From the sequence record MG383452: a stretch of DNA of 64,000 nt; one strand, written 5' to 3'. This document shows positions 2,142 through 58,007 of the stretch, piece after piece; position 1 is the stretch's first letter; every line of letters begins with the position of its first letter. The position numbers were made by a program, and so were the translations under genes. The stretch comes from Escherichia phage FEC14. Under the pieces are notes generated by a model. That model made no database searches, was not told the origin of the DNA, and saw only the letters and a program-made list of their open reading frames with translations.

Positions 2142-2471
2142 CTACCCCACCAAAATTTTGTTGTAATCCTGAGCATTTTGCTGTATCAGATCAACTAAGA
2201 TATCCCCAGACACCACAGTGAACAAGTCATTTTCTTTCAAATTAACAAATAACAAACGCCATGGTTTCTTCAATATATCTGTTGTAAAGGATAACCGAGG
2301 CTCTCCATTGTCTAAATGGACACCCACTTTCCCTATACGAAATTGAACGCCACGGAATTTGCCTTCCGTTATTTCGATTATTGCTAACTGATCAGAACCA
2401 GGGTCGATGATTTTGTAATTAACGGGGGAGTCTCCTCCCCCTGCAATATTACTCGGTTGTTTTGATGACAT
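2142..2471 (-). CDS. hypothetical protein in the position of T4 gene 40
   Basis: 109-aa ORF between uvsX and 41; assignment by synteny only, no sequence motif recognised. Confidence 0.4.
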   Translation of the reverse strand: MSSKQPSNIAGGGDSPVNYKIIDPGSDQLAIIEITEGKFRGVQFRIGKVGVHLDNGEPRLSFTTDILKKPWRLLFVNLKENDLFTVVSGDILVDLIQQNAQDYNKILVG

Positions 2472-3534
2472 TATCGAGGCGCTCCAGCATATCTGCAGGC
2501 ATAACCGAACTCTGAGAGATACCGAACATGTTGTTCACATCGTCAACAAAGTCTGGGTTTTCCAGCAGCGGATACCAGAAGTCATCCCCCAGCTCTGCCT
2601 TACGATATTTCTTTTCTTTTTCTGGATCAAACCCGCCTTTGGCAGTGCGTTGATACCAAGAACCACTCACCAAATCCACATACCCCAGCATGCGCGCAAT
2701 TTCTAACATACCGGACCAACGGTCAATACCGCCTTCATACAACACAGTGACAGGGAACTTGGCTTTTTCACGGACAAAGCGGCCTTTCATAATGTTGACT
2801 GTAAACTGCCATCCCAAAAGGTCTTTGTCTTCTTTAACTTGAGAACGCGTGATGAACCACAATTGGTTAGAAGACAGGAACCCCTGTTTACCGCCTTTGA
2901 TGTTCGGCTCGGCGTATTGGTTCCCGATTTCATCATAGTACGAGTTGATCCATACCAAAACGAATTTCTTTTCAGTGACCAACGGGGTGATAACACGCCA
3001 AAAACTATTGAGAGCGCGAGCGCGGGTCATATCTTGTGTGTCTTTGCCCGCGATGGCATCATCAACTTCTTTGGTAGACGGCAACTGGCTGATTGAGTCA
3101 ATGAATACGATGATCTTGTCACCTTTCTGTGCATCGTTCAGAAGCTGTGTCAGCTTGATCTTCGTCTTTTCAACGTTTTCAATTGGCAGATACAAGACAC
3201 GGTCCATGTCAATACCCATAGATGTCCAGTAGTTTTCATTCGCACCGCCTTCTGAATCCGCGAAGATACAAATTGCATCAGGAAACTTATCCATGTAAGC
3301 CTTAACATCCACCAGCCCAAACATGGTTTTGAATGTACGAGAATCCCCCACCAACTGTTTGATGCCTGATATCAGACCACCATCAATACGACCGGACCAG
3401 GCCAAATTCAGAATAGGAATACCCGTACTGCAAATAATGTCAGGCTTCAGCGCATCGGTCTTTGACAGCACTTCGGCATTCGGGTCCAGTTTCTTTGCTG
3501 TCTTGAGCATGCGAGCCATCAATGAATCGGCCAT
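2449..3534 (-). CDS. uvsX: UvsX RecA-like recombinase
   Basis: 361 aa; P-loop variant GDSRTFKT (T4 GPSKSFKS), DMTRA and GGxQGF motifs collinear with T4 UvsX. Confidence 0.85.
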   Translation of the reverse strand: MADSLMARMLKTAKKLDPNAEVLSKTDALKPDIICSTGIPILNLAWSGRIDGGLISGIKQLVGDSRTFKTMFGLVDVKAYMDKFPDAICIFADSEGGANENYWTSMGIDMDRVLYLPIENVEKTKIKLTQLLNDAQKGDKIIVFIDSISQLPSTKEVDDAIAGKDTQDMTRARALNSFWRVITPLVTEKKFVLVWINSYYDEIGNQYAEPNIKGGKQGFLSSNQLWFITRSQVKEDKDLLGWQFTVNIMKGRFVREKAKFPVTVLYEGGIDRWSGMLEIARMLGYVDLVSGSWYQRTAKGGFDPEKEKKYRKAELGDDFWYPLLENPDFVDDVNNMFGISQSSVMPADMLERLDNVIKTTE

Positions 3535-4049
3535 TTCGTTTCCTCTTGCTTGTTGATCGTAATTAATAAATCGGTGCCCAAGACTTTCTTGGACAATATA
3601 TTGATTGCTTCGTGAATCGCCATTATTGACGGGAGTTTTTCATCGTTAATTTCGGAACCCCCGCGTTCTGTTAAATACATATTACGCAGACGATTGTGCT
3701 GTGCCCTGTTGACACAAGAAACATTCAATGCGATATTCAGGATATACATCATTTGTTCAGTTGTAACATCCTTTGGAATAGCATGAACATAATATATCGC
3801 ATCTTCAAAATAGATATGCTGTAATGACTCTGGAATTTCTTCCCCGCCAAAAGCAAAATCTTCAATGCGTTTAAATAGTGTTTCCGGCTCTGGTGTTGTA
3901 ATATGTTGTGTTACAGTAGCCGCACCATCTGGCTCTTTCTTGAAATTGGTCGCAATAACGACATGACCGCCTGGTTTAATAAACTCAGCGAAGTTCTCTG
4001 CCATGTACGGGGCATGTTCCGCATAATATGATACGACAACTGTAAACAT
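3519..4049 (-). CDS. hypothetical protein (176 aa)
   Basis: ORF track; operon context between uvsX and nucleotide-metabolism genes. Confidence 0.4.
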   Translation of the reverse strand: MFTVVVSYYAEHAPYMAENFAEFIKPGGHVVIATNFKKEPDGAATVTQHITTPEPETLFKRIEDFAFGGEEIPESLQHIYFEDAIYYVHAIPKDVTTEQMMYILNIALNVSCVNRAQHNRLRNMYLTERGGSEINDEKLPSIMAIHEAINILSKKVLGTDLLITINKQEETKWPIH

Positions 4050-4600
4050 TAGAACTCCAGAGTCAGAGGGGTTTCGGCAGACTTGTCATAGTTCGCACCG
4101 CCAGCAGCACGTAGACGATTGCGATCGTTCTTGCGCTTGTGGGCCAGCATATAGGTTTCGGTGTCCAGATCCAAATAACCACAAGCCTTTGATAAAAACC
4201 GCACAAAACGGATAACATCTGGTTGAACCATAAATGACGTAAAACATTCTGTGACCGATTCCAGATTGGCCGATTTGTCTATCACTCGTCCGTCCTTGAA
4301 GAAAAGGTCAATCTGCATTTCAACTGGGAAAGCAGAACCAAATCCAGATAAAATGGAAGACAACATAAAATGTACCACGTCCACCAATTCGTAGACAGCT
4401 GCTTCTCGGTCATATTGTATCCCACCGCCATAGATTTTCCAGTCCTGGGTTGTTTCGTCAAGAAACTCTGCCCACTCACGATAGATGGAGTTCACCACCG
4501 CCACATGAGTCCAATGTTTACGCCACTCTTCCCCAAAATAGGCCACGTTGGTGGCCTTTTGAAGTTCGAGCAGACTTTTGATATGCTCTGCTGTGATCAT
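4049..4600 (-). CDS. putative MazG-like all-alpha NTP pyrophosphatase (T4 gp56 dCTPase/dUTPase-like)
   Basis: 183 aa; acidic helix pattern REWAEFLDE ... EAAVYELVDVVHF typical of MazG/HisE fold; context with dNMP kinase and hydroxymethylase. Confidence 0.4.
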   Translation of the reverse strand: MITAEHIKSLLELQKATNVAYFGEEWRKHWTHVAVVNSIYREWAEFLDETTQDWKIYGGGIQYDREAAVYELVDVVHFMLSSILSGFGSAFPVEMQIDLFFKDGRVIDKSANLESVTECFTSFMVQPDVIRFVRFLSKACGYLDLDTETYMLAHKRKNDRNRLRAAGGANYDKSAETPLTLEF

Positions 4601-5166
4601 TTCCGTTCCCTATAAAATTTGACGAATGGTTGCCAACCTTCAAATGGGTTAACAAATTCATAATCAACTTTCATCTCATCAATGAAAGCCTCTATGTCGT
4701 CCTCTATGATACCGCCGCGATCTGCCTTTGAAATGCGGGTGATGGGACATTTAGTGCTCAGCGCCCATTCATATTCTTGAGGCGTCCGTAGATCACTCAC
4801 AATATAATGAATGTTAGGATTCTGTTCAACTAATGGGAGTTGGTAACGCTTAAAGAAAGACAAAAACAGATCCGGTTGGACATAACGAAGCCCCGTATCG
4901 CTGCCGAGATGAAGCCAGATCTGCCTTGGGGTTAATCCCTTGGGGTTATCTGGGTGAACATATGGCAAGTCCTTGATATCGTCCTCTACTTCCTCTGGCA
5001 ACCAAGGATAGATGTAATGAGCCACCCGACGCAACTCGTCCGAGAAAGATAAGCGCTGGATGTCCATATCACCCTGTAAATGGTGATAGCTGATGAGGGA
5101 CTCCAAACAGAAGTCCTTGCCGGAGCGCTTGCGCCCCGTAAAGAATTCAAGGTTCGGATACATCAT
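4597..5166 (-). CDS. 1: deoxynucleoside monophosphate kinase (T4 gene 1-like)
   Basis: 189 aa; N-terminal P-loop FFTGRKRSGKDF matches T4 gp1 FLSGVKRSGKDT. Confidence 0.55.
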   Translation of the reverse strand: MMYPNLEFFTGRKRSGKDFCLESLISYHHLQGDMDIQRLSFSDELRRVAHYIYPWLPEEVEDDIKDLPYVHPDNPKGLTPRQIWLHLGSDTGLRYVQPDLFLSFFKRYQLPLVEQNPNIHYIVSDLRTPQEYEWALSTKCPITRISKADRGGIIEDDIEAFIDEMKVDYEFVNPFEGWQPFVKFYRERK

Positions 5167-6212
5167 ACTGCACCTTCCAAGAACTTGGGATCAACGATCT
5201 TGCGGTCAATCGGAGAATGGGCGAGCGCGATGTTCAAACCATGATCCTGAATCAGGTTCATGTTGATGAGCTTGTCGTTCAGTTTGCAGTACAGGCAGTA
5301 CGCCATCTGCACGATCAGGCCGCGATCCGCGCCGTACTCCTTCAGGTGAGCGACAACAGTTTCCCACGGGCTGCCGATATCACAGTGATGAAGCACACCA
5401 GTGAACAGATTGCGGATATGGTTCTGGTTGGTCACGTTCGTGAAGTAGATCATGGAGTTGATGAAACCACCAGTGACTTTTGTGTCTTTGGTGATCTTGC
5501 CAAGCTGCTTCTGGCTGACTTCATTGTTGTAGTAATGAAGATTGTTAGAGAATAGCTTGTACTGACCGACATCAACATCTAACACCTGAGCAATCACTTC
5601 CTGAAGAATAGAGAACTCAATGAAGTTGATTGAACTCATCCCCCACAGAACATCCTGTGAGCGGTTGATGACCGTCAGGTTCAGACGACCTTCAACGATG
5701 GCGAACAACAGAGCCAGGTTACACACCATGTCCTTAGTCTTTGCTTCGCCGCTCTCGCTGAACTTCGCCAGACCAGCATCCGAATCTAGAGCCGGATCAT
5801 AGATGGTGAGGTACGCTTGACGAGTATTTGGGTTCTTGCGTAGGCGGTTGATAACGCTATCCAGCTGGCCATGGGCGTACAGACGCGGACCATAAGCGGC
5901 TCGCCATGTATGGCCATTATCAGAGAAGTTGGCGGCGCGAGGGAGGACACGGGACAAGAAGCGCACATCATCGCGCCCAGACAGAACCCAGAAGGTCTCG
6001 CCGATGGCAGCAATAGCCGATGAGTTGCGTCCTTCAACAGACAGCCAACGGTCGCGGATGTCAGAGACGGTGATCGTCACGCCATCAATAAAACGAGTGC
6101 CGTCTGTGTTGATCTCCGCGTTACCAGGGTCAGATTCAATCCCGTGCTCACGGATAGCCAAGACAGCCTGTTTCAGCATGTCGTTGTTGTTAATTGCTTT
6201 GATTTCCATCAA
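5163..6212 (-). CDS. thymidylate synthase / dCMP hydroxymethylase superfamily enzyme; putative pyrimidine deoxynucleotide hydroxymethylase
   Basis: 349 aa; nucleophile Cys in KDMVCNLALLF followed 20 residues later by RSQDVLWGMSSINF, same spacing as T4 gp42 MCTN...RSND and TS PCH...RSxD...FN; NTRQAYLTIYDP loop; no TS-type His after Cys. Confidence 0.7.
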   Translation of the reverse strand: MMEIKAINNNDMLKQAVLAIREHGIESDPGNAEINTDGTRFIDGVTITVSDIRDRWLSVEGRNSSAIAAIGETFWVLSGRDDVRFLSRVLPRAANFSDNGHTWRAAYGPRLYAHGQLDSVINRLRKNPNTRQAYLTIYDPALDSDAGLAKFSESGEAKTKDMVCNLALLFAIVEGRLNLTVINRSQDVLWGMSSINFIEFSILQEVIAQVLDVDVGQYKLFSNNLHYYNNEVSQKQLGKITKDTKVTGGFINSMIYFTNVTNQNHIRNLFTGVLHHCDIGSPWETVVAHLKEYGADRGLIVQMAYCLYCKLNDKLINMNLIQDHGLNIALAHSPIDRKIVDPKFLEGAV

Positions 6213-6883
6213 TAAATACTCCCAAAATCACGATTGAGAAACGCAAAAACAGCCTGCTCTACAGTCAGGCCATCGGACTTCATCATACCTGCGGGAACGG
6301 TAGGGAACAAGCCTTTATGCCGTTGACGATGATCATGAACTCTCTCCCACTTCTCGACCACCAGACTTTCATTGAAGTCTGCGCCACCGTTACGCGATTT
6401 GACACGGGCAATACAGGTTTCAAGAGGGGTATCCATAAAGAGGACGACCAATTCACGTGGTGGGCGTGTCAGGCGGGGAATCCAAGAACTCAATAATGTA
6501 GACGGAATGATGCCTTCGAAAATCACATCATATTTCAGGTATTCTGGTTGGTCAGCAATAGACAACGCGAACAACATCTGCTCAGTATCCTTCAGAGAAT
6601 CAACCCCTTTGGACTTAGACTTGTCATATTTACCGACACAGACAATATTGTAAGATGGACAAACCGTGAGCATGATCTTACTGTTATGGGTTACGACATA
6701 CGCCTGAGGATCATTCTCCGCCAAATAAGAGGGCACAGTAGACTTACCACTACCATTGGAGCCTTTAATGTAATACAACTCTCCTCGTGCCGAATATTCC
6801 CCTTCTACAGTAGGTGGTTTGACAAACAAATGCACAGGGCGCTTCAACAGCCCTTTGAGCGAATAAGACATGACATGCTCCAA
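6209..6883 (-). CDS. PNK-type P-loop kinase; candidate 5-hydroxymethyl-deoxyuridine DNA kinase or nucleotide kinase
   Basis: 224 aa; Walker A GSNGSGKST (polynucleotide-kinase style, unlike the RSGKD dNMP kinase), Walker B-like VIFEGII; immediately upstream of hydroxymethylase. Confidence 0.45.
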   Translation of the reverse strand: MEHVMSYSLKGLLKRPVHLFVKPPTVEGEYSARGELYYIKGSNGSGKSTVPSYLAENDPQAYVVTHNSKIMLTVCPSYNIVCVGKYDKSKSKGVDSLKDTEQMLFALSIADQPEYLKYDVIFEGIIPSTLLSSWIPRLTRPPRELVVLFMDTPLETCIARVKSRNGGADFNESLVVEKWERVHDHRQRHKGLFPTVPAGMMKSDGLTVEQAVFAFLNRDFGSIY

Positions 6884-6943
6884 TAAACAAAAGGAGCTGC
6901 TATTATAGCAGCCCCTTTATCTATTGAACGCTTCTGAATTAAA

Positions 6944-7903
6944 TTACGCAGCAGCTTTCGCTTCGGCCAACGCCTGAGGCAACCATTCATTGATTGCTTT
7001 CACCAGAGATTCGGCATCAGTTTCTTTGATTTTCTGGCGTTTGGTGAATGATTTACCATTCACATACAGACTGAACCCCCAGCCGCCGGAAACGATCGGC
7101 GCCAGATCAACATAAGTATTGGTGCGGGCGTGTGGATTGGCTTCATCTGCCAGTTCGGTAACAGGGAACTGGAACCAGCGCATATCCGGATTCACATAGC
7201 TCAAATAAACCCCAGGCACAACCCCTGATTCAACCGCAGCCAGGATAGGACCATAATTGGATGCGCGAGCCGCTTCAACCATTTCTTCACGCTTGTTATG
7301 ACGACGCTTGCGTTCTTCGGTAGAAGATGCAGGGCGCATTTCAGAAGATTTCTTGGCCAGAACCGCCTTCGCGTTCGCTAAAGCCTGATCATCCTTCGGA
7401 TTTTCAACGTCGGCGATTGCTTCAGCAACGGTTGTGCCCAGCATACGACGGCGAACTTCTTCAGCACGGGCTTGCGCTTCTTCGTCAAGAACTTCTTCGC
7501 CTTCAACTACCAGGGAAATGGAACCGTCTTTGTTGACTTCAAGAGAACCGTCTTCGACGGTCTGGGAATTTTGATCACCGACAGGTTGCCCAACCGTTTC
7601 TTCGGCGTCAATCACCGGATTTGATTCACCGTCGCCCTGTTTAACCCCCGCATCTTCGGTCGGTTTAACTTTTTCGGCTTCAGCGCGGTCAAGAGCTTCG
7701 AGAGTCTCTTCTTTCTCTTCCTGGCTCAGACCTTCGATGAGTTCAAAGCCATTGGCTGACTGGAGGACGCCTTCCATCATACGGCGTAACGTGACGTTGC
7801 CGATGATAAGGTCTGCACCTTTGATTTCTGCTTGAAGATCAGCAGCGGTTTTACCATCAATTTCAAATTTCAGGCCGGACTCGATATGAAGAATATAGGA
7901 CAT
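6944..7903 (-). CDS. hypothetical acidic protein (319 aa)
   Basis: ORF track; long acidic/coiled central region; preceded by sigma70-like promoter. Confidence 0.5.
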   Translation of the reverse strand: MSYILHIESGLKFEIDGKTAADLQAEIKGADLIIGNVTLRRMMEGVLQSANGFELIEGLSQEEKEETLEALDRAEAEKVKPTEDAGVKQGDGESNPVIDAEETVGQPVGDQNSQTVEDGSLEVNKDGSISLVVEGEEVLDEEAQARAEEVRRRMLGTTVAEAIADVENPKDDQALANAKAVLAKKSSEMRPASSTEERKRRHNKREEMVEAARASNYGPILAAVESGVVPGVYLSYVNPDMRWFQFPVTELADEANPHARTNTYVDLAPIVSGGWGFSLYVNGKSFTKRQKIKETDAESLVKAINEWLPQALAEAKAAA

Positions 7904-7970
7904 AATAAAAACCCTTTTGTGTAGTAACCTTCTTTGGCAGTTTAATGTTCAACTGTGCGTCTGGAACATT

Positions 7971-8000
7971 AATATACTGCCTTTTTAGAAGATGTAAACC
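7971..8000 (-). promoter_or_regulatory. sigma70-like early promoter (-35 GTTTAC, 17-nt spacer, -10 TATATT) reading into gene ending at 7903
   Basis: minus-strand GTTTACA at 7999-7993 and TATATT at 7976-7971; matches T4 early promoter architecture. Confidence 0.35.
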
Positions 8001-8076
8001 ACTTTTTATTGAAAAGTTGGTTAACACTTCTGTGTTAGACAACGGAACGCTGTATCAGCGCGGACTGGCGTGAATA

Positions 8077-8364
8077 TTAACTTTGTATATCAATATTGAA
8101 AACTGTTTCAGGTGGCCACATGGCAGACAACTCGATTTGTGTGAATTTGGGTTGAACATACTGGTCCAAAACTTCGTCCCAGAGAGCATGTTCTATGTTG
8201 GCAATCAACAATTCGTCGTCCACTATTTCGACGGAATGAACCACTATCCGGTGGTCATAAGTCAAAGCATCGCTCACATGATCATTTTCTGCTCTCAGGT
8301 GCTGCATTATGAAATATTCGATTACAGATTCCAGTACCGTGTTCAGGCGAACATATTTCTTCAT
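8077..8364 (-). CDS. hypothetical protein (95 aa)
   Basis: ORF track. Confidence 0.4.
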   Translation of the reverse strand: MKKYVRLNTVLESVIEYFIMQHLRAENDHVSDALTYDHRIVVHSVEIVDDELLIANIEHALWDEVLDQYVQPKFTQIELSAMWPPETVFNIDIQS

Positions 8365-8381
8365 ACAGCCCCCTGCTTGTG

Positions 8382-9128
8382 CTACAGATAGAAATTAGGG
8401 ATTTCGCCGGATTCACAACCAAACCCGTTAAAATTCTGCTCAACGTGTAAGCGAATTTTATTCACCACTACCTGACGATGCTCTTCTTCCATACAACGTT
8501 CAATCAAAGAATACGCTGTATATGACAGACTGTTGAACAATCTGGAAATAACAAGGCAATTCTCTTCATTGTAAACGACTTCAGTATGGATTGCGAAAGC
8601 GTGGTCTTCGTCGGTAAGAATTTTACAGCCTTTGACCACAAATGGTTTTTCAAAGAAATCACGAGCTGAATCAGTGCCAGATTCTGGCATTAAACGGAAA
8701 TCGCCTTCTTCGCCGAAAACCGCTTTCAGATTTTCTTTACTGAATTCCGCTTCCATCTGTATACGTTTGTCGGCAAGATATTTCGCCGCAAAGTAGAATT
8801 TACCCACTGCATCATTAGCAGCGCGGCGGTTCGTAGCGGCTTGGGTATAACCAGAAACGAAGTCTTCAATGAATTCCAATGCTTCTGGTTTGCCAAAACG
8901 AATTTCGTCGCCCAGATCCAAGCTGGCTTCGGAATCAAGTTCAATACCCATAACCTTAAGAAGATCCGTTTCATTCAGCCTGTGCTGATTAAACAATTGT
9001 TCCTTGGAATATCCCAACTGGCTACCGAGTTCATATCCGGTTTTACCACCCGAATCTTTATGGGTGCGATCATATCGAACGCAATTAGAACTGAATTCAA
9101 TACCAAAAATACGATGTAGCTGTGACAT
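8382..9128 (-). CDS. hypothetical protein (248 aa)
   Basis: ORF track; no recognisable motif. Confidence 0.5.
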   Translation of the reverse strand: MSQLHRIFGIEFSSNCVRYDRTHKDSGGKTGYELGSQLGYSKEQLFNQHRLNETDLLKVMGIELDSEASLDLGDEIRFGKPEALEFIEDFVSGYTQAATNRRAANDAVGKFYFAAKYLADKRIQMEAEFSKENLKAVFGEEGDFRLMPESGTDSARDFFEKPFVVKGCKILTDEDHAFAIHTEVVYNEENCLVISRLFNSLSYTAYSLIERCMEEEHRQVVVNKIRLHVEQNFNGFGCESGEIPNFYL

Positions 9129-47341: not shown

Positions 47342-47848
47342 TTATAGGGTAACAAGTGATACGGTAAAAACCATCGTCCCATCTGTTGCCATTTTTCTTG
47401 AAACTGGGAAGACGCGAGGCTGACAGAATATCCATTCTTTCTCCATGGACGCCAAGTCCAGCATATCCATTTCTGATTCATCGCCTTTGTTCACAAATTT
47501 TTCTAGAGAACCAAAGACATTAAGCCCCTCTGGGAGTCCGTTTCGATGTTTATAACAAATGCGGGCAACAGCTTTGGTTCCATACGATTTAGAAAATTGT
47601 TTGGCCACATGCTTCAGTTCGCTGAAACTAAGACAAGAATCCCATGTCTGAAACATGTCTCCTCGTTCAAACATCATCTCCAAACGCGCAACGTCCTCTT
47701 TAGGCAACCCGCGATAAAGTGTGGTCATCTGCGGTTCGCGTAATTCTTGCACCAGACCACGGATGGCAGGGGAAACAGTGCCAGGGCGCATGATGTGGGA
47801 CTTATCATGGACGAGGTAAAATAAATCTTGAATTTGTTGATCGGTCAT
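47342..47848 (-). CDS. hypothetical protein (168 aa)
   Basis: ORF track; starts MTDQ like the downstream 92-aa gene. Confidence 0.45.
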   Translation of the reverse strand: MTDQQIQDLFYLVHDKSHIMRPGTVSPAIRGLVQELREPQMTTLYRGLPKEDVARLEMMFERGDMFQTWDSCLSFSELKHVAKQFSKSYGTKAVARICYKHRNGLPEGLNVFGSLEKFVNKGDESEMDMLDLASMEKEWIFCQPRVFPVSRKMATDGTMVFTVSLVTL

Positions 47849-47894
47849 GATGTATTTCCTTCATTTCAAATAGGCGGGGTAATCATACCCCACC
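47843..47894 (-). repeat. 5-prime cassette copy B: stem-loop plus TATTTGAAATGAAGGAA RBS context
   Basis: about 36-nt near-identity with copy A including first codons ATGAC(A/C)GATCAA. Confidence 0.5.
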
Positions 47895-47907
47895 CTAAGT
47901 TATAGAA

Positions 47908-48147
47908 TTAACTGATGTGCTTCAGAAGAGCGAAGAGGATCGCGGCCTTGGCTTTCACCTTTCCGACGACGCCTGTTTCGACGTCGACTTCTTCGGCAAC
48001 CCAATCTTTTCCCTTCTTGCTGATGATAACATCGCGGCGCTGGGCATATACTTCTTTGGTCGCATACACACGACGGAACCCTTTAGCGCGGAGCAAGCCC
48101 CAATTACGATCAATCTCCACTGAAGTTTCTACCATTTTGTTCTTCAT
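47908..48147 (-). CDS. hypothetical protein (79 aa)
   Basis: ORF track. Confidence 0.4.
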   Translation of the reverse strand: MKNKMVETSVEIDRNWGLLRAKGFRRVYATKEVYAQRRDVIISKKGKDWVAEEVDVETGVVGKVKAKAAILFALLKHIS

Positions 48148-48640: not shown

Positions 48641-50857
48641 TTAGATTTTGACTTCTTTTTCAGCCAGTTCGGCAGTGACAGTGTATTTCACCCCATCAAC
48701 TTCCACATCCATAGTGGATTCTTCCAAATCCAGGTCGGTAAACCAACCATGGCCTGCAACAATCCCATAAACTACCTTGGACAGCGTTTTGTTCAGAGAT
48801 CGAACTTCGTTGATAGCTGCTTTTGCTGCATCACCAATCCAACTTTCGATCAGCTTTTTCTGAGTCTCTTCCGGTACGCTGGTGATCATCGGCGATTTAA
48901 CAAACGCATTGTATTCGGCCAGGGCATTAGCGATCAGCTGATCAGCGACATTCAGTTTTTTACCGTCCGTCTGTTTTTTGATAACAGACGCGATGCTCGG
49001 CAGTGAAGATGCGCCTTTGATTTTCACATTCAATTCACGACTCATATAGACATCGGTTGATTCTACAGAAGAAGTCTTCGGTGAAAATCCATAGTCGCGA
49101 ATGCCGTTTGCTGACAGGAAATCAGCCGCTTCTTTGCCATATTTTGAAGCCAGACCAGTAGCGTTGCCTTTGCCAACCAGTTCATCACGGTAGAATTTCA
49201 GAACTTTTTGCTTTGCCTTCAATGCTTCACGGCGCACATTGTCTGCAAAGAATTCAGCAGCACTGATATTCTTTGTCATGGCGCGGTTAACCATTGGGAC
49301 ACTTTCCAGATTTACAATGAAGACTTCCGGCCCACCAAACACATGAACACCCATGGCAGTCAAATCCTGTGCCACCTTAGCCCGAATAATCGGAGAATCT
49401 GCAGTGATAGGCATTGTTTTCAGGTTGATGATACCATCCTTGACAATGGTGTAATTGCGATAACGCCAGGTTCCCAGCTCTTCAGGAAGTTCATATTTCT
49501 TCTGTACAAACTCAGGCACAACAACCGTTCCGTGTTGAACTGTCTGCACACTGATGTTAGGACGTTCTGAATTGTAGACCAAATTGCTGATCGGGACAAT
49601 CCCTTTATCATCTGCTGGATTGAATTCGGGGGTCCAATCTTCGTGCTCGGCCAGTTTGAGCGCCAGGGCTTTACGCTCTTCTTTAGAAGTCGCATTCGCA
49701 ATCTCTTCGGCCAACTTGTCTTCGGTGTCATCAACTTTCTGTACAGTACCGCGCCCAATGCTCTTGTAAGAGAATAGCGGATGCTTAGTGACAATAGAGA
49801 CATCTGCTTCAGCCAGATACGTCAGAACATCAACAATGGTGGTGGCGTCTTCAGCCGGAACCATATTATAATCGATGCCATCAACTCCTCGCAGAGATTC
49901 GTCTACGATAGCCTGGGTCAGATCGACTTTGATGTTGGAATAGTCCTGCTTGGTGAAACAGTTGCTGTATTGTTTGATGAAGCGGACGTCACCCGTTTTC
50001 TTCAGCGCAGCCCAAACCAAATCTGCGTCCATGGTATACACGCCGTAAAATGCCAGCACGTATGCCGCTTGGATGTCTGCCAGATTATCCAGCTGGTCGA
50101 TCATGTTGGGGTTTACAACCCACAGCTGAGAAACGCTTTCAGGGATGCTGACGTGGCCAATAGGGTGCTCTTCATCAGGATGCACAGCTAAAACAGTCGC
50201 CACGCCATTTTCAACATAAATGGCATGGGTGTAAACCAGGGGAACATCGACCACCACTTTCGGTGAAGAAGTTTTTAGCACGTTTTCCAATTCGGTCTGA
50301 TATTCATTCTGGCCTTCGGCGAATACGTGGGTCGCACCAGAACGTTCTGCCATTAGCGCCAGCAGTTCGCGATTACAATACCAACCGTATTCGATGAAGG
50401 TAATGTTATCAAACGCTTTGGGCAGTACTTCAGCGGCATCCAGGATTTCATTAGAACGCCAGCAGTTGTCATATCCGTCAGTCATGAATGCCAGGTTATT
50501 AACATAACCAGGTTTATTCAGGCTAATGGCAGTTTCCGCAGCCAATTTCAGCGGCTCAACAAAACCAGTACAACCAGAAGGCTTCAGGAAACGGTCAATT
50601 AGATTATTGATCTCAGTGAGATCAGTTGCACTGTTAATCTGACGTCCGGCAAATACCGTTCCGAAATCACCGCGAGATGAAAAGTAAAGGATGCTCACAG
50701 TATCTTCCGGTTTCACCAGGGAAGGCAGGTTCTCCTTCAGATGCTTACGGACTTCTGGAAGTGAACGATACATGGAACCGGAGATATCCACAACGATTAC
50801 ATGGTTAGACGGCGCGACGGTCGCAACCGCATTCTTAAATGTTAATGATTCAATCAT
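48641..50857 (-). CDS. von Willebrand factor A (VWA) domain protein (738 aa)
   Basis: N-terminal MIDAS-like VIVVDISGSMYRS; ATG 50857 with GAAGG RBS (tracked ORF starts at upstream GTG). Confidence 0.55.
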   Translation of the reverse strand: MIESLTFKNAVATVAPSNHVIVVDISGSMYRSLPEVRKHLKENLPSLVKPEDTVSILYFSSRGDFGTVFAGRQINSATDLTEINNLIDRFLKPSGCTGFVEPLKLAAETAISLNKPGYVNNLAFMTDGYDNCWRSNEILDAAEVLPKAFDNITFIEYGWYCNRELLALMAERSGATHVFAEGQNEYQTELENVLKTSSPKVVVDVPLVYTHAIYVENGVATVLAVHPDEEHPIGHVSIPESVSQLWVVNPNMIDQLDNLADIQAAYVLAFYGVYTMDADLVWAALKKTGDVRFIKQYSNCFTKQDYSNIKVDLTQAIVDESLRGVDGIDYNMVPAEDATTIVDVLTYLAEADVSIVTKHPLFSYKSIGRGTVQKVDDTEDKLAEEIANATSKEERKALALKLAEHEDWTPEFNPADDKGIVPISNLVYNSERPNISVQTVQHGTVVVPEFVQKKYELPEELGTWRYRNYTIVKDGIINLKTMPITADSPIIRAKVAQDLTAMGVHVFGGPEVFIVNLESVPMVNRAMTKNISAAEFFADNVRREALKAKQKVLKFYRDELVGKGNATGLASKYGKEAADFLSANGIRDYGFSPKTSSVESTDVYMSRELNVKIKGASSLPSIASVIKKQTDGKKLNVADQLIANALAEYNAFVKSPMITSVPEETQKKLIESWIGDAAKAAINEVRSLNKTLSKVVYGIVAGHGWFTDLDLEESTMDVEVDGVKYTVTAELAEKEVKI

Positions 50858-51020
50858 CGTTATTACCTTCTTTAGTGGTATGGACGGCTTCACCTTCCGG
50901 CTTCGCCAGCATGTGTTCTATGAATTCGCGATTAGTTTCAATCTGTTGGATTAAAACTTCGCTGGGTTTAAACTGTGAGTCAAGAGAGTCAACTCCTGAA
51001 CGCAAAAATGGTTTGGTCAT
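50850..51020 (-). CDS. small ORF (56 aa), translationally coupled
   Basis: unlisted frame MTKPFLRSGVDSLDSQFKPSEVLIQQ...; start 1 nt after upstream stop, stop overlaps VWA start (ATGA). Confidence 0.3.
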   Translation of the reverse strand: MTKPFLRSGVDSLDSQFKPSEVLIQQIETNREFIEHMLAKPEGEAVHTTKEGNNDD

Positions 51021-55433: not shown

Positions 55434-56690
55434 TTATTCAGGTTTCTTCAAACGATCTAATAAATTGACCGATCCGCGATTGAGGACAATTTCATCGCAT
55501 CGATTTTTGTATCTCCCGCCTCCATCATAACCGACCTTGCCGCGTGGCTTTTCCCCTCTCTCGATAGCCTCAACACAGCGGGTGTACTTGCTCAATTCAC
55601 AGAACATGTTCTCCAGCTGCATGACGTTCATGCACTGATCTTCCGGCGCTTCGGCTGACCAGAACTGCTCTTGGACATAACCATACTGAGCAAACAATTG
55701 ATACTGATGATCACGAACCCAGAATATGCATTCTTCATGAGTCATGCCGTCCTTATCCAGGAACATCAGGTCAATACCCGCACGGCAACCTGGACCAGCA
55801 ATAGTGAAATGATTCTCACTGAATGGATATTCATCGATGTATGTAAAATCAACCCAAATCTGGTATGCCAAGAATGGTCCAAGCCCCTCAATGTCGTCAT
55901 ACATCGCCTGGTAAACAGAGTCGGGACGGCTAAATTCCCTGAGGCGATCAAAGTAATGAGGGTGTTTGTTGACGAATGCCTTCAAAGAGCGAATGACTCG
56001 CATCGGCATGTATGGTTCCCAGCCTTCTATTTTGTATTCACCAGGATTATCTTCGGCCAGCTTCTTGGCAACCTTGTAATCCATTTCATCTATAACACCA
56101 CCCACCCGATGGACTTTTACCTTCATGCCGCCAAAGCGTTGCTCCTTATGGTTGACAACCAGTTCAGGGAAAGCTAGGCATTGTTTCAGACCGCCTGTAT
56201 TAAACGCATTGGTGAAAACTTTGCCACCTTTAGATTCGAATTCCTGAAGAACATCTCGACACCATTCAAGATTTATGTTTCCGAATTCTTCGATCGTCCA
56301 TGGACCACCCAAAGCCTGTATAGGTTCCCACATGTTGTACATGCGGAACAATACACAGTTAAACATTTTGTCAGATAGCGTGAGATCCTGATCGAGGATG
56401 ATATTATTGATCAAATTTCGAGACTGCCTATCGTGCTCTCTCCGGACGTTACAGAACTTGACCTGCCGTAGTATGGGATTATCCGTCCAAGGAGCAGGAA
56501 GACGCTGGACGTCCTTTCTCACGTGGATCTTATAACGCTCGCTCATCCATTCGTATGCGAGTTGTTTATGGAATGGGCTTAACATGGGATGTGCAGATTT
56601 AATTTTAACTTCCCGAACACCGCAATAAGGAATGTCACACGGTTTATCTTTCATGGTATCCTCTCTAGAATACAAAAAAACAGAGGCCAT
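55434..56690 (-). CDS. hypothetical protein (406-418 aa); candidate DNA-modification enzyme by context
   Basis: ORF track; alternative ATG at 56654 with GAGG RBS; first ATG sits in terminator loop. Confidence 0.5.
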   Translation of the reverse strand: MASVFLYSREDTMKDKPCDIPYCGVREVKIKSAHPMLSPFHKQLAYEWMSERYKIHVRKDVQRLPAPWTDNPILRQVKFCNVRREHDRQSRNLINNIILDQDLTLSDKMFNCVLFRMYNMWEPIQALGGPWTIEEFGNINLEWCRDVLQEFESKGGKVFTNAFNTGGLKQCLAFPELVVNHKEQRFGGMKVKVHRVGGVIDEMDYKVAKKLAEDNPGEYKIEGWEPYMPMRVIRSLKAFVNKHPHYFDRLREFSRPDSVYQAMYDDIEGLGPFLAYQIWVDFTYIDEYPFSENHFTIAGPGCRAGIDLMFLDKDGMTHEECIFWVRDHQYQLFAQYGYVQEQFWSAEAPEDQCMNVMQLENMFCELSKYTRCVEAIERGEKPRGKVGYDGGGRYKNRCDEIVLNRGSVNLLDRLKKPE

Positions 56691-56703
56691 TATAGCCTCT
56701 GTT
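56673..56703 (-). terminator. rho-independent terminator
   Basis: CAGAGGC-CATTATA-GCCTCTG hairpin followed by TTTTTTTG on minus strand. Confidence 0.5.
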
Positions 56704-56725
56704 GTTTAGTGAATAACGGATTATA

Positions 56726-57595
56726 TTAATCGAAGCGAGAGAGGTGTGTCACAGTGTTTTGAACAGGTGCGCACGCGTATACACGAACATTAGCACCCCA
56801 CACCCCACACAGCTTAGGCATATTGGTATCGTTAATGATATACGCTGGCACATAACTTTCAATTTGGCCGTTAACATCTACGGGTCGAGAAGATTTTTCA
56901 ACTGCCATAGAAAGAATTATTTCCAACGTTTTTGGAGATACCAACGCCACGCCGTTCAAATCATCAACAAATACCTGACCTTCTTCAATTGCCATGCTGG
57001 CAACGATGTCATTGATCTGACGGGAAGGGGTATTCGTCAGCATATCAGAGAAATCAGGCTCTTTGAACACAGCCATGTTTTTCAGGAATTTTCCTTTCGG
57101 ATATTCTTTGCCATTCCACATCACAGTCTCATTCACTTTGATGCATGCCTGAGGGAATTCACCTTCAACACGTAACTGGCCATCTGGGAAACCGCGTGAA
57201 TAATAATATTCCAGTGCCGGACCGACTTCATCTTCTGAGCGAATAAATTTGCTCATGTTGGAGGCATAAACACGCTGCAAGCACTCATCGCCGTTGAAAC
57301 CAGCAATGTGTGCCACGCCGTCATTGACTGTTGTGATGTCGCCCTGAGCGTCCAAAATCTGGCGCATAATGTCTTTGATGTCGACAACAGCAGGTTCTTT
57401 CAGGACTCGCGGAGATGCAGTGAACTCAATTTTCACCTCGTGGTCGAAATAAGCCGCTTCCAGTAATTCGCGGGTCTCTTCCAGAACCAGTTTGGCCTGA
57501 TTGCGAATTTTACCGAAGTCAGGGGCTGTAATATCTCCAGCCGCATTACCAAAAGCCAAATTCAATCTCACGTTTTTATTAAATGTAGTTGTCAT
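56726..57595 (-). CDS. hypothetical protein (289 aa)
   Basis: ATG 57595 (MTTTFNKN...) with GGAG upstream; longer tracked ORF would overlap regA by 71 nt. Confidence 0.45.
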   Translation of the reverse strand: MTTTFNKNVRLNLAFGNAAGDITAPDFGKIRNQAKLVLEETRELLEAAYFDHEVKIEFTASPRVLKEPAVVDIKDIMRQILDAQGDITTVNDGVAHIAGFNGDECLQRVYASNMSKFIRSEDEVGPALEYYYSRGFPDGQLRVEGEFPQACIKVNETVMWNGKEYPKGKFLKNMAVFKEPDFSDMLTNTPSRQINDIVASMAIEEGQVFVDDLNGVALVSPKTLEIILSMAVEKSSRPVDVNGQIESYVPAYIINDTNMPKLCGVWGANVRVYACAPVQNTVTHLSRFD

Positions 57596-57611
57596 AATAT
57601 AGCGACTCCAG

Positions 57612-58007
57612 TTATTCGCTTTTTGCCCGACTTGGGCGAATAGTGTATTTTGGAACCAATTTCCACTCAGAAACTTGGTCATGTTTTACAACTTTGATCC
57701 GAGACATGTCAGCCACTTCGGTTATTTGTTCCGGATGCAAGATCTTAACCATATTCCATTGCTCCAGAAGCCGTATAATCCGATTCATACGCAGGACATC
57801 TTCACGCGTAAAGCCGTTGTAGTGCCCATCTAGCATGAACAAATGCTTGAAATGCACGATGTGATATCTGCCAAATTTATGCAGGATATGGCACGTTTGA
57901 TACAAGGTGTTAGGCTCTTGACGAGTGTTAACCCCTATCCGACTCAGCGTTTCCTTGATACCCAGGAAAATCCCTGGTTTGTCTTGGTTCAATTGAACTT
58001 CAACCAT
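57612..58007 (-). CDS. regA: RegA translational repressor
   Basis: LYQTCHILHKFGRYHIVHFKHLFMLDG and EWKLVPKYTI match T4 RegA; start at MVEVQLNQ aligns with T4 MIEITLKK (tracked ORF has 23 extra codons). Confidence 0.7.
   Translation of the reverse strand: MVEVQLNQDKPGIFLGIKETLSRIGVNTRQEPNTLYQTCHILHKFGRYHIVHFKHLFMLDGHYNGFTREDVLRMNRIIRLLEQWNMVKILHPEQITEVADMSRIKVVKHDQVSEWKLVPKYTIRPSRAKSE

Follow-up and report, generated by a model that had tools for sequence, protein, structure and literature searches.

What does Escherichia phage FEC14 do with the thymine of its DNA? The question is raised by a run of minus-strand genes at positions 4049-6883 of a 64,000-nucleotide stretch of its genome (sequence record MG383452; the whole stretch is referred to here as the window), in which an enzyme of the thymidylate synthase (TS) superfamily is encoded between two P-loop kinases, with a putative pyrophosphatase gene beyond them. 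The original prediction placed this module near uvsX, where phage T4 carries beta-gt and gene 42, and suggested a hydroxymethylated, possibly further derivatised pyrimidine in virion DNA as a route to restriction evasion. Very probably, the locus encodes the nucleotide-level enzymes with which ViI-type thymidine hypermodification begins in the Ackermannviridae, together with the first of the enzymes that act on DNA. The system as such is already known, and the locus is an orthologous copy of it: the gene set was interpreted in phage CBA120 in 2011, the identity of the modified base has been known since 2018, and reconstitution of the enzymology followed in 2021.

The 224-amino-acid (aa) P-loop protein encoded at 6209-6883 (minus strand) matched the Pfam family PF18748, '5-hmdU DNA kinase' (5-hmdU, 5-hydroxymethyldeoxyuridine), over the complete profile (positions 1-196 of 196), with a score of 376.2 bits against a cut-off of 27 (E = 3.7e-113), and its Walker A motif, GSNGSGKST, occupied residues 41-49 of the open reading frame (ORF). 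The protein was 94% identical over 219 aa to the one encoded at the syntenic position of phage ViI, Vi01_061c (orf00067, YP_004327432, also named gp67), and its start is likely the ATG at 6871 (MSYSLKG...), matching the ViI annotation. YP_004327432 is listed as a 5-hmdU DNA kinase (PMC8989533, Table 1), and on 5-hmdU DNA both ViI gp67 and a second ViI kinase, gp243, gave the same 418-u phosphorylated nucleotide as M6 gp54 (PMC8989533, section 15). Because of its near-identity to the biochemically tested gp67, the FEC14 protein is assigned as a 5-hmdU DNA kinase and the orthologue of gp67. The paralogue gp243 belongs to another Pfam family, PF18747 (HMUD2), and shared only 23% identity with the window kinase, confined to the region around the P-loop. 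The gp67-type family, also called 5-HMUDK, goes back to a bioinformatic prediction by Aravind and coworkers, cited in PMC5889632.

The naming of this kinase family in the databases deserves separate mention. Its members are labelled 'terminase small subunit' in RefSeq (ViI Vi01_061c, SFP_0056 and SP10 gp186) and in PHROG_800, and one record calls the kinase a 'baseplate hub'. The genuine small terminase of ViI is a separate gene, Vi01_162c, and the name 'terminase small subunit' for the 5-hmdU kinase is a propagating misannotation.

The chemistry to which such a kinase contributes has been described in relatives of FEC14. In ViI, CBA120, CBA6 and 1.255.O, ~40% of thymine is replaced by 5-(2-aminoethoxy)methyl-deoxyuridine (5-NeOmdU), a base that was reconstituted with lysates expressing gp67, gp160, gp226, gp243 and gp247 (Lee et al. 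2018, PMC5889632), and in phage phiHS2 5-NeOmdU accounts for 16.4% of thymine (2026 preprint, bioRxiv 10.64898/2026.05.19.726188). The modification occurs in TG and TC contexts, and ViI DNA proved resistant to 71% of the type II enzymes tested, which numbered more than 200 (Flodman et al. 2019, PMC6449724). The pathway genes are conserved across the Ackermannviridae (2024 review, PMC11721090). Two ideas of the original prediction were thus well founded: that thymidine hypermodification starts with a TS-family hydroxymethylase paired with a 5-hmdU DNA kinase, and that a derivatised pyrimidine protects against restriction. The first is supported by the orthology to gp67 and the literature on the ViI group, the second by the 5-NeOmdU of the relatives and the enzyme resistance of ViI DNA.

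Further genes of the pathway were found in a second minus-strand cluster of the window (55434-57682), ~49 kb from the first at 4049-6883. The ORF at 55434-56690 matched PF18723 (Pfam name HMUDK_hel, aG/PT-PPlase1) with E = 2.7e-84 and was 86% identical to ViI gp160 (Vi01_130c, orf00160), of which it encodes the orthologue; translation likely begins at residue 13 of the ORF. Beside it, a 318-aa protein encoded at 56726-57682 matched PHROG_2144 (1.7e-135), and its ViI counterpart, the neighbouring Vi01_131c, is annotated as MazG-like; no match to it was obtained in the Pfam or PDB sequence searches, and it is a second candidate nucleoside triphosphate (NTP) pyrophosphatase for the pathway. The remaining genes were located outside the window in Salmonella phage SFP10, whose orthologues of gp247, gp243 and gp226 were 92%, 85% and 94% identical to the ViI proteins, respectively, so that this near-identical reference phage has the complete published gene set. 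The SFP10 orthologue of gp226 is annotated with 347 aa, 77 fewer at the N terminus than the 424 aa given for ViI, and the 94% identity applies to the aligned part; the difference in length is probably one of start-codon annotation.

The 5-HMUDK family co-associates with dUMP hydroxymethyltransferases, and in phage SP10 the kinase is fused to aG/PT-PPlase1 in a single protein, gp186 (PMC5889632), which was found to carry both PF18748 and PF18723. It may be proposed that the window kinase (gp67 type, HMUD1) and the gp160-type protein act together as a second unit of their own, separate from gp243 (HMUD2) and gp247, whose genes are clustered in the genome, and that this unit turns remaining 5-hmdU into thymine or sets the TG/TC context; we consider this proposal unlikely. 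No function for gp160 was found in PMC8989533, and Lee et al. described the route from 5-hmdU to thymidine as unknown (PMC5889632).

It could be that FEC14 makes plain 5-hmdU DNA, as SPO1 does, without further derivatisation. This was suggested for CBA120 in 2011, when Kutter et al. judged further modification unlikely from restriction patterns (PMC3184105), and a hydroxymethylase, a deoxynucleoside monophosphate (dNMP) kinase and a dUTPase alone would yield exactly such DNA. However, the window also holds the 5-hmdU DNA kinase and the gp160 orthologue, and SFP10 encodes the serine:DNA transferase and the pyridoxal phosphate (PLP)-dependent decarboxylase. Furthermore, ViI virion DNA was reported to be without 5-hmdU (PMC8989533), and in ViI-like phages ~40% of thymine is present as 5-NeOmdU (PMC5889632). 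Plain 5-hmdU DNA is highly improbable for FEC14, and the hypermodification pathway is preferred.

The relationship of the TS-fold protein encoded at 5163-6212 (minus strand) to thymidylate synthases and hydroxymethylases was studied in a multiple alignment containing the window protein, its homologues from ViI, SP82G (SPO1-like), SP10 and LKO4 (M6-like), E. coli ThyA and T4 gp42. Read from a TTG start, the ORF comprises 349 aa; the SFP10 annotation begins at the ATG at 6209, which gives 348 aa, and this is the numbering used here. Its KDMVCNLALLF motif contains Cys163, and RSQDVLWG begins at residue 183, exactly 20 positions after the cysteine, and is followed by SSINF. The spacing from the cysteine to the Arg-Ser pair was identical, without gaps, in E. 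coli ThyA and T4 gp42, and Cys163, Glu71, Tyr106, Arg183-Ser184 and Asp186 were invariant in the alignment; the TS fold, the catalytic cysteine and the R-S-x-D substrate-binding motif are all present. The residue that follows Cys163 is Asn (CN), where TS has CH (His147) and gp42 has CT, and 'CNL' at the cysteine was common to all five phage homologues of the clade. Compared with gp42 (246 aa), the protein (348 aa) has 102 additional residues. A 349-aa ORF with these motifs, a spacing shared with gp42 and TS, about 100 additional residues and the lack of the TS-type His were each part of the original prediction, and each proved correct.

In many GenBank records this ORF is entered as 'thymidylate synthase' or 'thyA', and in one its neighbour appears as a 'putative thymidylate kinase', as would suit ordinary thymidylate metabolism with a canonical TS, a thymidylate or dNMP kinase and a dUTPase, and virion DNA composed only of A, C, G and T. 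Its Pfam family is indeed Thymidylat_synt (PF00303; E = 4.3e-16, 59.3 bits against a cut-off of 24.3), the match being restricted to residues 65-235. However, all seven NCBIfam TS equivalog models remained below their cut-offs, at 19-57 bits against 108-427 (the best at 56.5 against 327), and with scores so far under the cut-offs the enzyme is not a canonical ThyA; His147 of TS is replaced by Asn; and the gene directly upstream encodes a full-length 5-hmdU DNA kinase, which is neither a dNMP kinase nor a thymidylate kinase. The profile searches thus grouped neither ORF with the enzymes of ordinary thymidylate synthesis. In addition, relatives contain 5-NeOmdU (PMC5889632), and CBA120 incorporated no 3H-thymidine (PMC3184105). 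Ordinary thymidylate metabolism at this locus must be judged extremely unlikely.

The closest relatives of the TS-fold protein pointed instead to phages with modified thymine. In tblastn searches the homologues of Vibrio phage 1.255.O (2e-33), SP10 (3e-27), LKO4 (1e-26) and SP82G (1e-24) were all matched far better than the T4-like td of JS10 (9e-7), and by its sequence the enzyme is closer to proteins of phages that carry hmdU or hypermodify thymidine (SPO1-like, SP10 and M6-like) than to T4-like td. Among PDB sequences the best match was the CMP hydroxymethylase MilA (5.5e-17), followed by thymidylate synthases (3e-9 to 1e-3). The same genes were interpreted by Kutter et al. (2011) in CBA120, where the 'thymidylate synthase' clusters by phylogeny with the dUMP hydroxymethylases of phiW-14, SPO1 and YuA (PMC3184105). 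The FEC14 enzyme is a predicted dUMP hydroxymethylase.

The base on which it would act was read from the residue corresponding to TS Asn177 and gp42 Asp179. Asn195, the Asn of SSINF, aligned with E. coli TS Asn177 in HMMER alignments, and the position was likewise Asn in the ViI, SP82G, SP10 and LKO4 homologues, as against Asp in gp42 and MilA. The HMMER alignment to E. coli TS was used for this residue because MAFFT puts gp42 Asp179 one column away from Asn195, a shift caused by one extra loop residue in the clade of the window protein; gp42 itself was placed through the multiple alignment only. Mutagenesis of TS and gp42 has linked Asn at this position to uracil and Asp to cytosine. Uracil, in the form of dUMP, is therefore the predicted substrate, not cytosine, which settles the choice between the two pyrimidines that the original prediction had left to this residue. 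T4-like cytosine modification, in which a dCMP hydroxymethylase and a gp56-like dCTPase would lead to hydroxymethylcytosine (hmC) DNA, would suit the position syntenic with T4 beta-gt and 42 beyond 41-40-uvsX and the best PDB match, MilA, yet its probability is just as minute as that of ordinary thymidylate metabolism, given that Asn195 is shared with TS and all hmdU-phage homologues, that no pairwise similarity to T4 gp42 was detected (BLASTP E = 25), that the adjacent kinase family acts on 5-hmdU and that CBA120 shows no substitution of hmC for C (PMC3184105). The comparison with the T4 gp42/gp56 system, also part of the original prediction, thus held for the map position and the motif spacing, but not for sequence similarity or for cytosine as the modified base.

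The additional ~100 aa of the predicted hydroxymethylase were considered next to those of its homologues. Because the extensions of the SP82G (383 aa), SP10 (382 aa) and LKO4 (351 aa) proteins are similar in length, the extra residues are a trait of the dUMP hydroxymethylases of hmdU phages and not peculiar to this locus. The identity to these three proteins, 30-33%, was confined to residues 1-240. A reading of the C-terminal ~110 aa as a novel domain special to the locus was rejected in view of the same extensions. The hydroxymethylase was 100% identical to the SFP10 protein and 77% identical to ViI Vi01_060c, and its C-terminal ~110 aa were variable, with 36-57% identity to ViI. Two allele classes were distinguished across the Ackermannviridae, with at least 92% and ~76% identity to the window protein; the FEC14 allele is of the SFP10/Det7/Dickeya type, not the ViI/Klebsiella type.

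Two further genes of the run would supply and process the nucleotide. The 188-aa P-loop protein encoded at 4597-5163 (minus strand) matched PHROG_139, deoxynucleoside monophosphate kinase (5.7e-48), and was 91% identical to ViI 'dnk', and no match was obtained in the Pfam, NCBIfam or PDB sequence searches. Its P-loop, GRKRSGKD, lies near the N terminus and corresponds to GVKRSGKD in T4 gp1, to which a weak collinear second high-scoring segment pair was also found (YIVSDLR/YIVPDTR). The protein appears to be distantly gp1-like and would presumably convert 5-hmdUMP to 5-hmdUDP; in CBA120, too, a dNMP kinase gene is adjacent, and the dUTPase may double as a dTTPase (PMC3184105). The 183-aa protein encoded at 4049-4600 (minus strand), an all-alpha NTP pyrophosphohydrolase of the dUTPase_2/MazG-like kind, scored 31.6 bits against Pfam dUTPase_2 (PF08761; cut-off 22.9) and matched PHROG_173, NTP pyrophosphohydrolase (6.9e-38), while among PDB sequences only the Campylobacter dimeric dUTPase 1w2y was found, as a marginal match (E = 0.012); it is a presumed dUTPase and possibly a dTTPase as well. 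The MazG-like pyrophosphatase of the original prediction was thereby recovered, as was the distinction that it drew between the GSNGSGKST kinase and the RSGKD-type dNMP kinase, which now rests on PF18748 against PHROG_139.

Adjoining these genes, a 176-aa protein encoded at 3519-4049 (minus strand) matched PF24021, 'Phage ACT-like domain' (6e-88). By tblastn, 272 phage records contained it, practically all of them named for enterobacterial hosts typical of the Ackermannviridae, and in almost every match listed its gene was flanked by uvsX on one side and the dUTPase gene on the other and overlapped each of them. The protein appears to be restricted to the Ackermannviridae and is a candidate member of the pathway by virtue of its place in the gene run. 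ACT domains are as a rule binders of small ligands, so that this one might conceivably regulate the nucleotide module. The kinase, dNMP kinase, ACT_phage protein and gp160 are not represented by any NCBIfam model.

Taken together, these assignments suggest the following route. The dUTPase_2-type pyrophosphatase would provide dUMP and possibly destroy dTTP too; the TS-fold enzyme, using Cys163 and methylene-tetrahydrofolate and selecting uracil through Asn195, would convert dUMP to 5-hydroxymethyl-dUMP; the dNMP kinase would produce 5-hmdUDP, from which the host nucleoside diphosphate kinase would make the triphosphate; and the phage polymerase would put 5-hmdU in the place of thymine. From here on the steps are experimental for ViI (order from Lee et al. 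2021, PMC8989533), and the FEC14 kinase would, like its orthologue, phosphorylate the hydroxymethyl group of 5-hmdU in DNA to give 5-phosphomethyl-deoxyuridine (5-PmdU). An orthologue of gp247, the serine:DNA transferase, would then give O-serinyl-thymidine, and one of gp226, the PLP-dependent enzyme, would decarboxylate it to 5-NeOmdU; both genes lie outside the window and were seen in SFP10. The expected end state is that of ViI, where ~40% of T positions carry 5-NeOmdU, the rest carry T, and most type II restriction enzymes are resisted.

Several points weigh against this assignment of the locus to the hypermodification pathway. The chemistry was measured in relatives of FEC14. For the TS-fold enzyme of the Ackermannviridae, hydroxymethylase activity has itself been deduced, in the literature, on the grounds of homology and of the failure to incorporate thymidine. 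ViI has two 5-hmdU kinases, either of which may supply the 5-NeOmdU branch in vivo. The substrates of the dUTPase_2 protein and the dNMP kinase are likewise putative, and the similarity of the latter to T4 gp1 is weak. Finally, the hydroxymethylase (77% identity) and the dUTPase_2 protein (69%) have diverged from ViI far more than the kinase (94%), and there may be a functional difference between the allele types.

The module forms part of a longer series of eight minus-strand ORFs, running from 6883 down to 711, each overlapping or abutting its neighbour, which suggests co-expression. Beyond the ACT_phage gene the series comprises UvsX (2449-3534), a 109-aa ORF (2142-2471) and a gp41-type helicase (711-2141), all on the minus strand; read from the helicase, the order gp41, 109-aa ORF, UvsX and ACT_phage gene, then the dUTPase_2, dNMP kinase, hydroxymethylase (5163-6209) and 5-hmdU kinase genes, parallels the T4 order 41-40-uvsX-segA-beta-gt-42 taken from the T4 record, and the position near uvsX given in the original prediction stands. 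The sole gap of the run, 60 nucleotides between a 319-aa ORF (6944-7903) and the kinase gene, contains a hairpin with a perfect 13-bp stem and a T-rich tail (6890-6918, minus strand, from a scan for terminator-like structures), which has a palindromic counterpart on the plus strand. The hairpin is likely an intrinsic terminator of the upstream 319-aa gene or a processing site, and it delimits the gene run at its 5' end. A promoter scan gave matches at background level (22 against 16.4 +/- 4.5 expected).

The region 4049-6883 was matched by megablast in 265 phage records, whose named hosts were Salmonella, Klebsiella, Escherichia, Dickeya and Shigella, the best being Salmonella phage SFP10 at 99.9% identity. 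SFP10 and ViI (Vi01) belong to the genus Kuttervirus of the Ackermannviridae, as does the phage of the window, which is collinear with SFP10 from ~31,979 and with ViI from ~32 kb. The divergence from ViI across 2449-9128 was mosaic, with genes of low identity (UvsX, 72%; dUTPase_2, 69%; hydroxymethylase, 77%; a 248-aa ORF at 8382-9128, 79%) interleaved with genes of 91-100% identity (ACT_phage, 95%; dNMP kinase, 91%; 5-hmdU kinase, 94%; the 319-aa ORF, 99%; a gp2-like gene, 100%), the gp41-type helicase being 97% identical. This pattern suggests recombination, or diversifying selection on genes of nucleotide metabolism. Elsewhere in the window, 47701-48018 corresponds to an 'acyl carrier protein' gene according to the SFP10 annotation and adjoins a large ORF (48641-50893; 750 aa) with a von Willebrand A domain at its N terminus, a pairing that is unusual in a phage.

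The practical value of these assignments lies in annotation. Most records and RefSeq name the hydroxymethylase 'thymidylate synthase', and most records, RefSeq and PHROG_800 name the kinase 'terminase small subunit', with the consequence that the hypermodified DNA of these Salmonella and E. coli phages, which serve in therapy and biocontrol, goes unseen. A bulky amino-ether base in place of part of the thymine means resistance to host restriction enzymes, and hypermodification affects restriction mapping, cloning, sensitivity to host defences and probably sequencing. The window also touches on where the unmodified T comes from, on what gp160 and the paralogous kinases do, and on the two divergent alleles in which both the hydroxymethylase and the dUTPase occur.

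Compared with known systems, the locus is essentially no different from that of SFP10 (NC_016073, SFP_0053 to SFP_0056), with 99.9% nucleotide identity over 4049-6883, although RefSeq retains outdated names there (thymidylate synthase, terminase small subunit, hypothetical protein). In ViI, the 5-NeOmdU pathway comprises dU-hmt (Vi01_060c), the kinases gp67 and gp243, gp160, gp226 and gp247; the gene order (gp41, orf, uvsX, ACT, dUTPase, dnk, thyA-like, kinase) and the Pfam families are the same, and the kinase, the dNMP kinase and gp160 are 94%, 91% and 86% identical, whereas the hydroxymethylase (77%, with 36-57% in the last ~110 aa), dUTPase_2 (69%) and UvsX (72%) differ more, and the hydroxymethylase of ViI is of the other allele type. 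The dUMP hydroxymethylases of SPO1/SP82G, SP10 and M6-like Pseudomonas phages share the TS fold, the 'PCNL' cysteine motif, the specificity Asn and a long C-terminal extension (351-383 aa in total), but with 30-33% identity over residues 1-240 only and a C-terminal extension whose sequence is not conserved; in SP10 gp186, moreover, 5-HMUDK is fused to aG/PT-PPlase1, whereas the window has the two domains as separate genes ~49 kb apart. With T4 (gp42, gp56 and gp1) the locus has in common the combination of a TS-fold hydroxymethylase, an NTP pyrophosphatase and a dNMP kinase, and the map position by 41-40-uvsX. The two systems differ in the pyrimidine, uracil (Asn) in the window system and cytosine (Asp) in T4, with no detectable sequence similarity to gp42, and in the downstream chemistry, which is phosphorylation, serine transfer and decarboxylation in the ViI-type pathway and glucosylation in T4.

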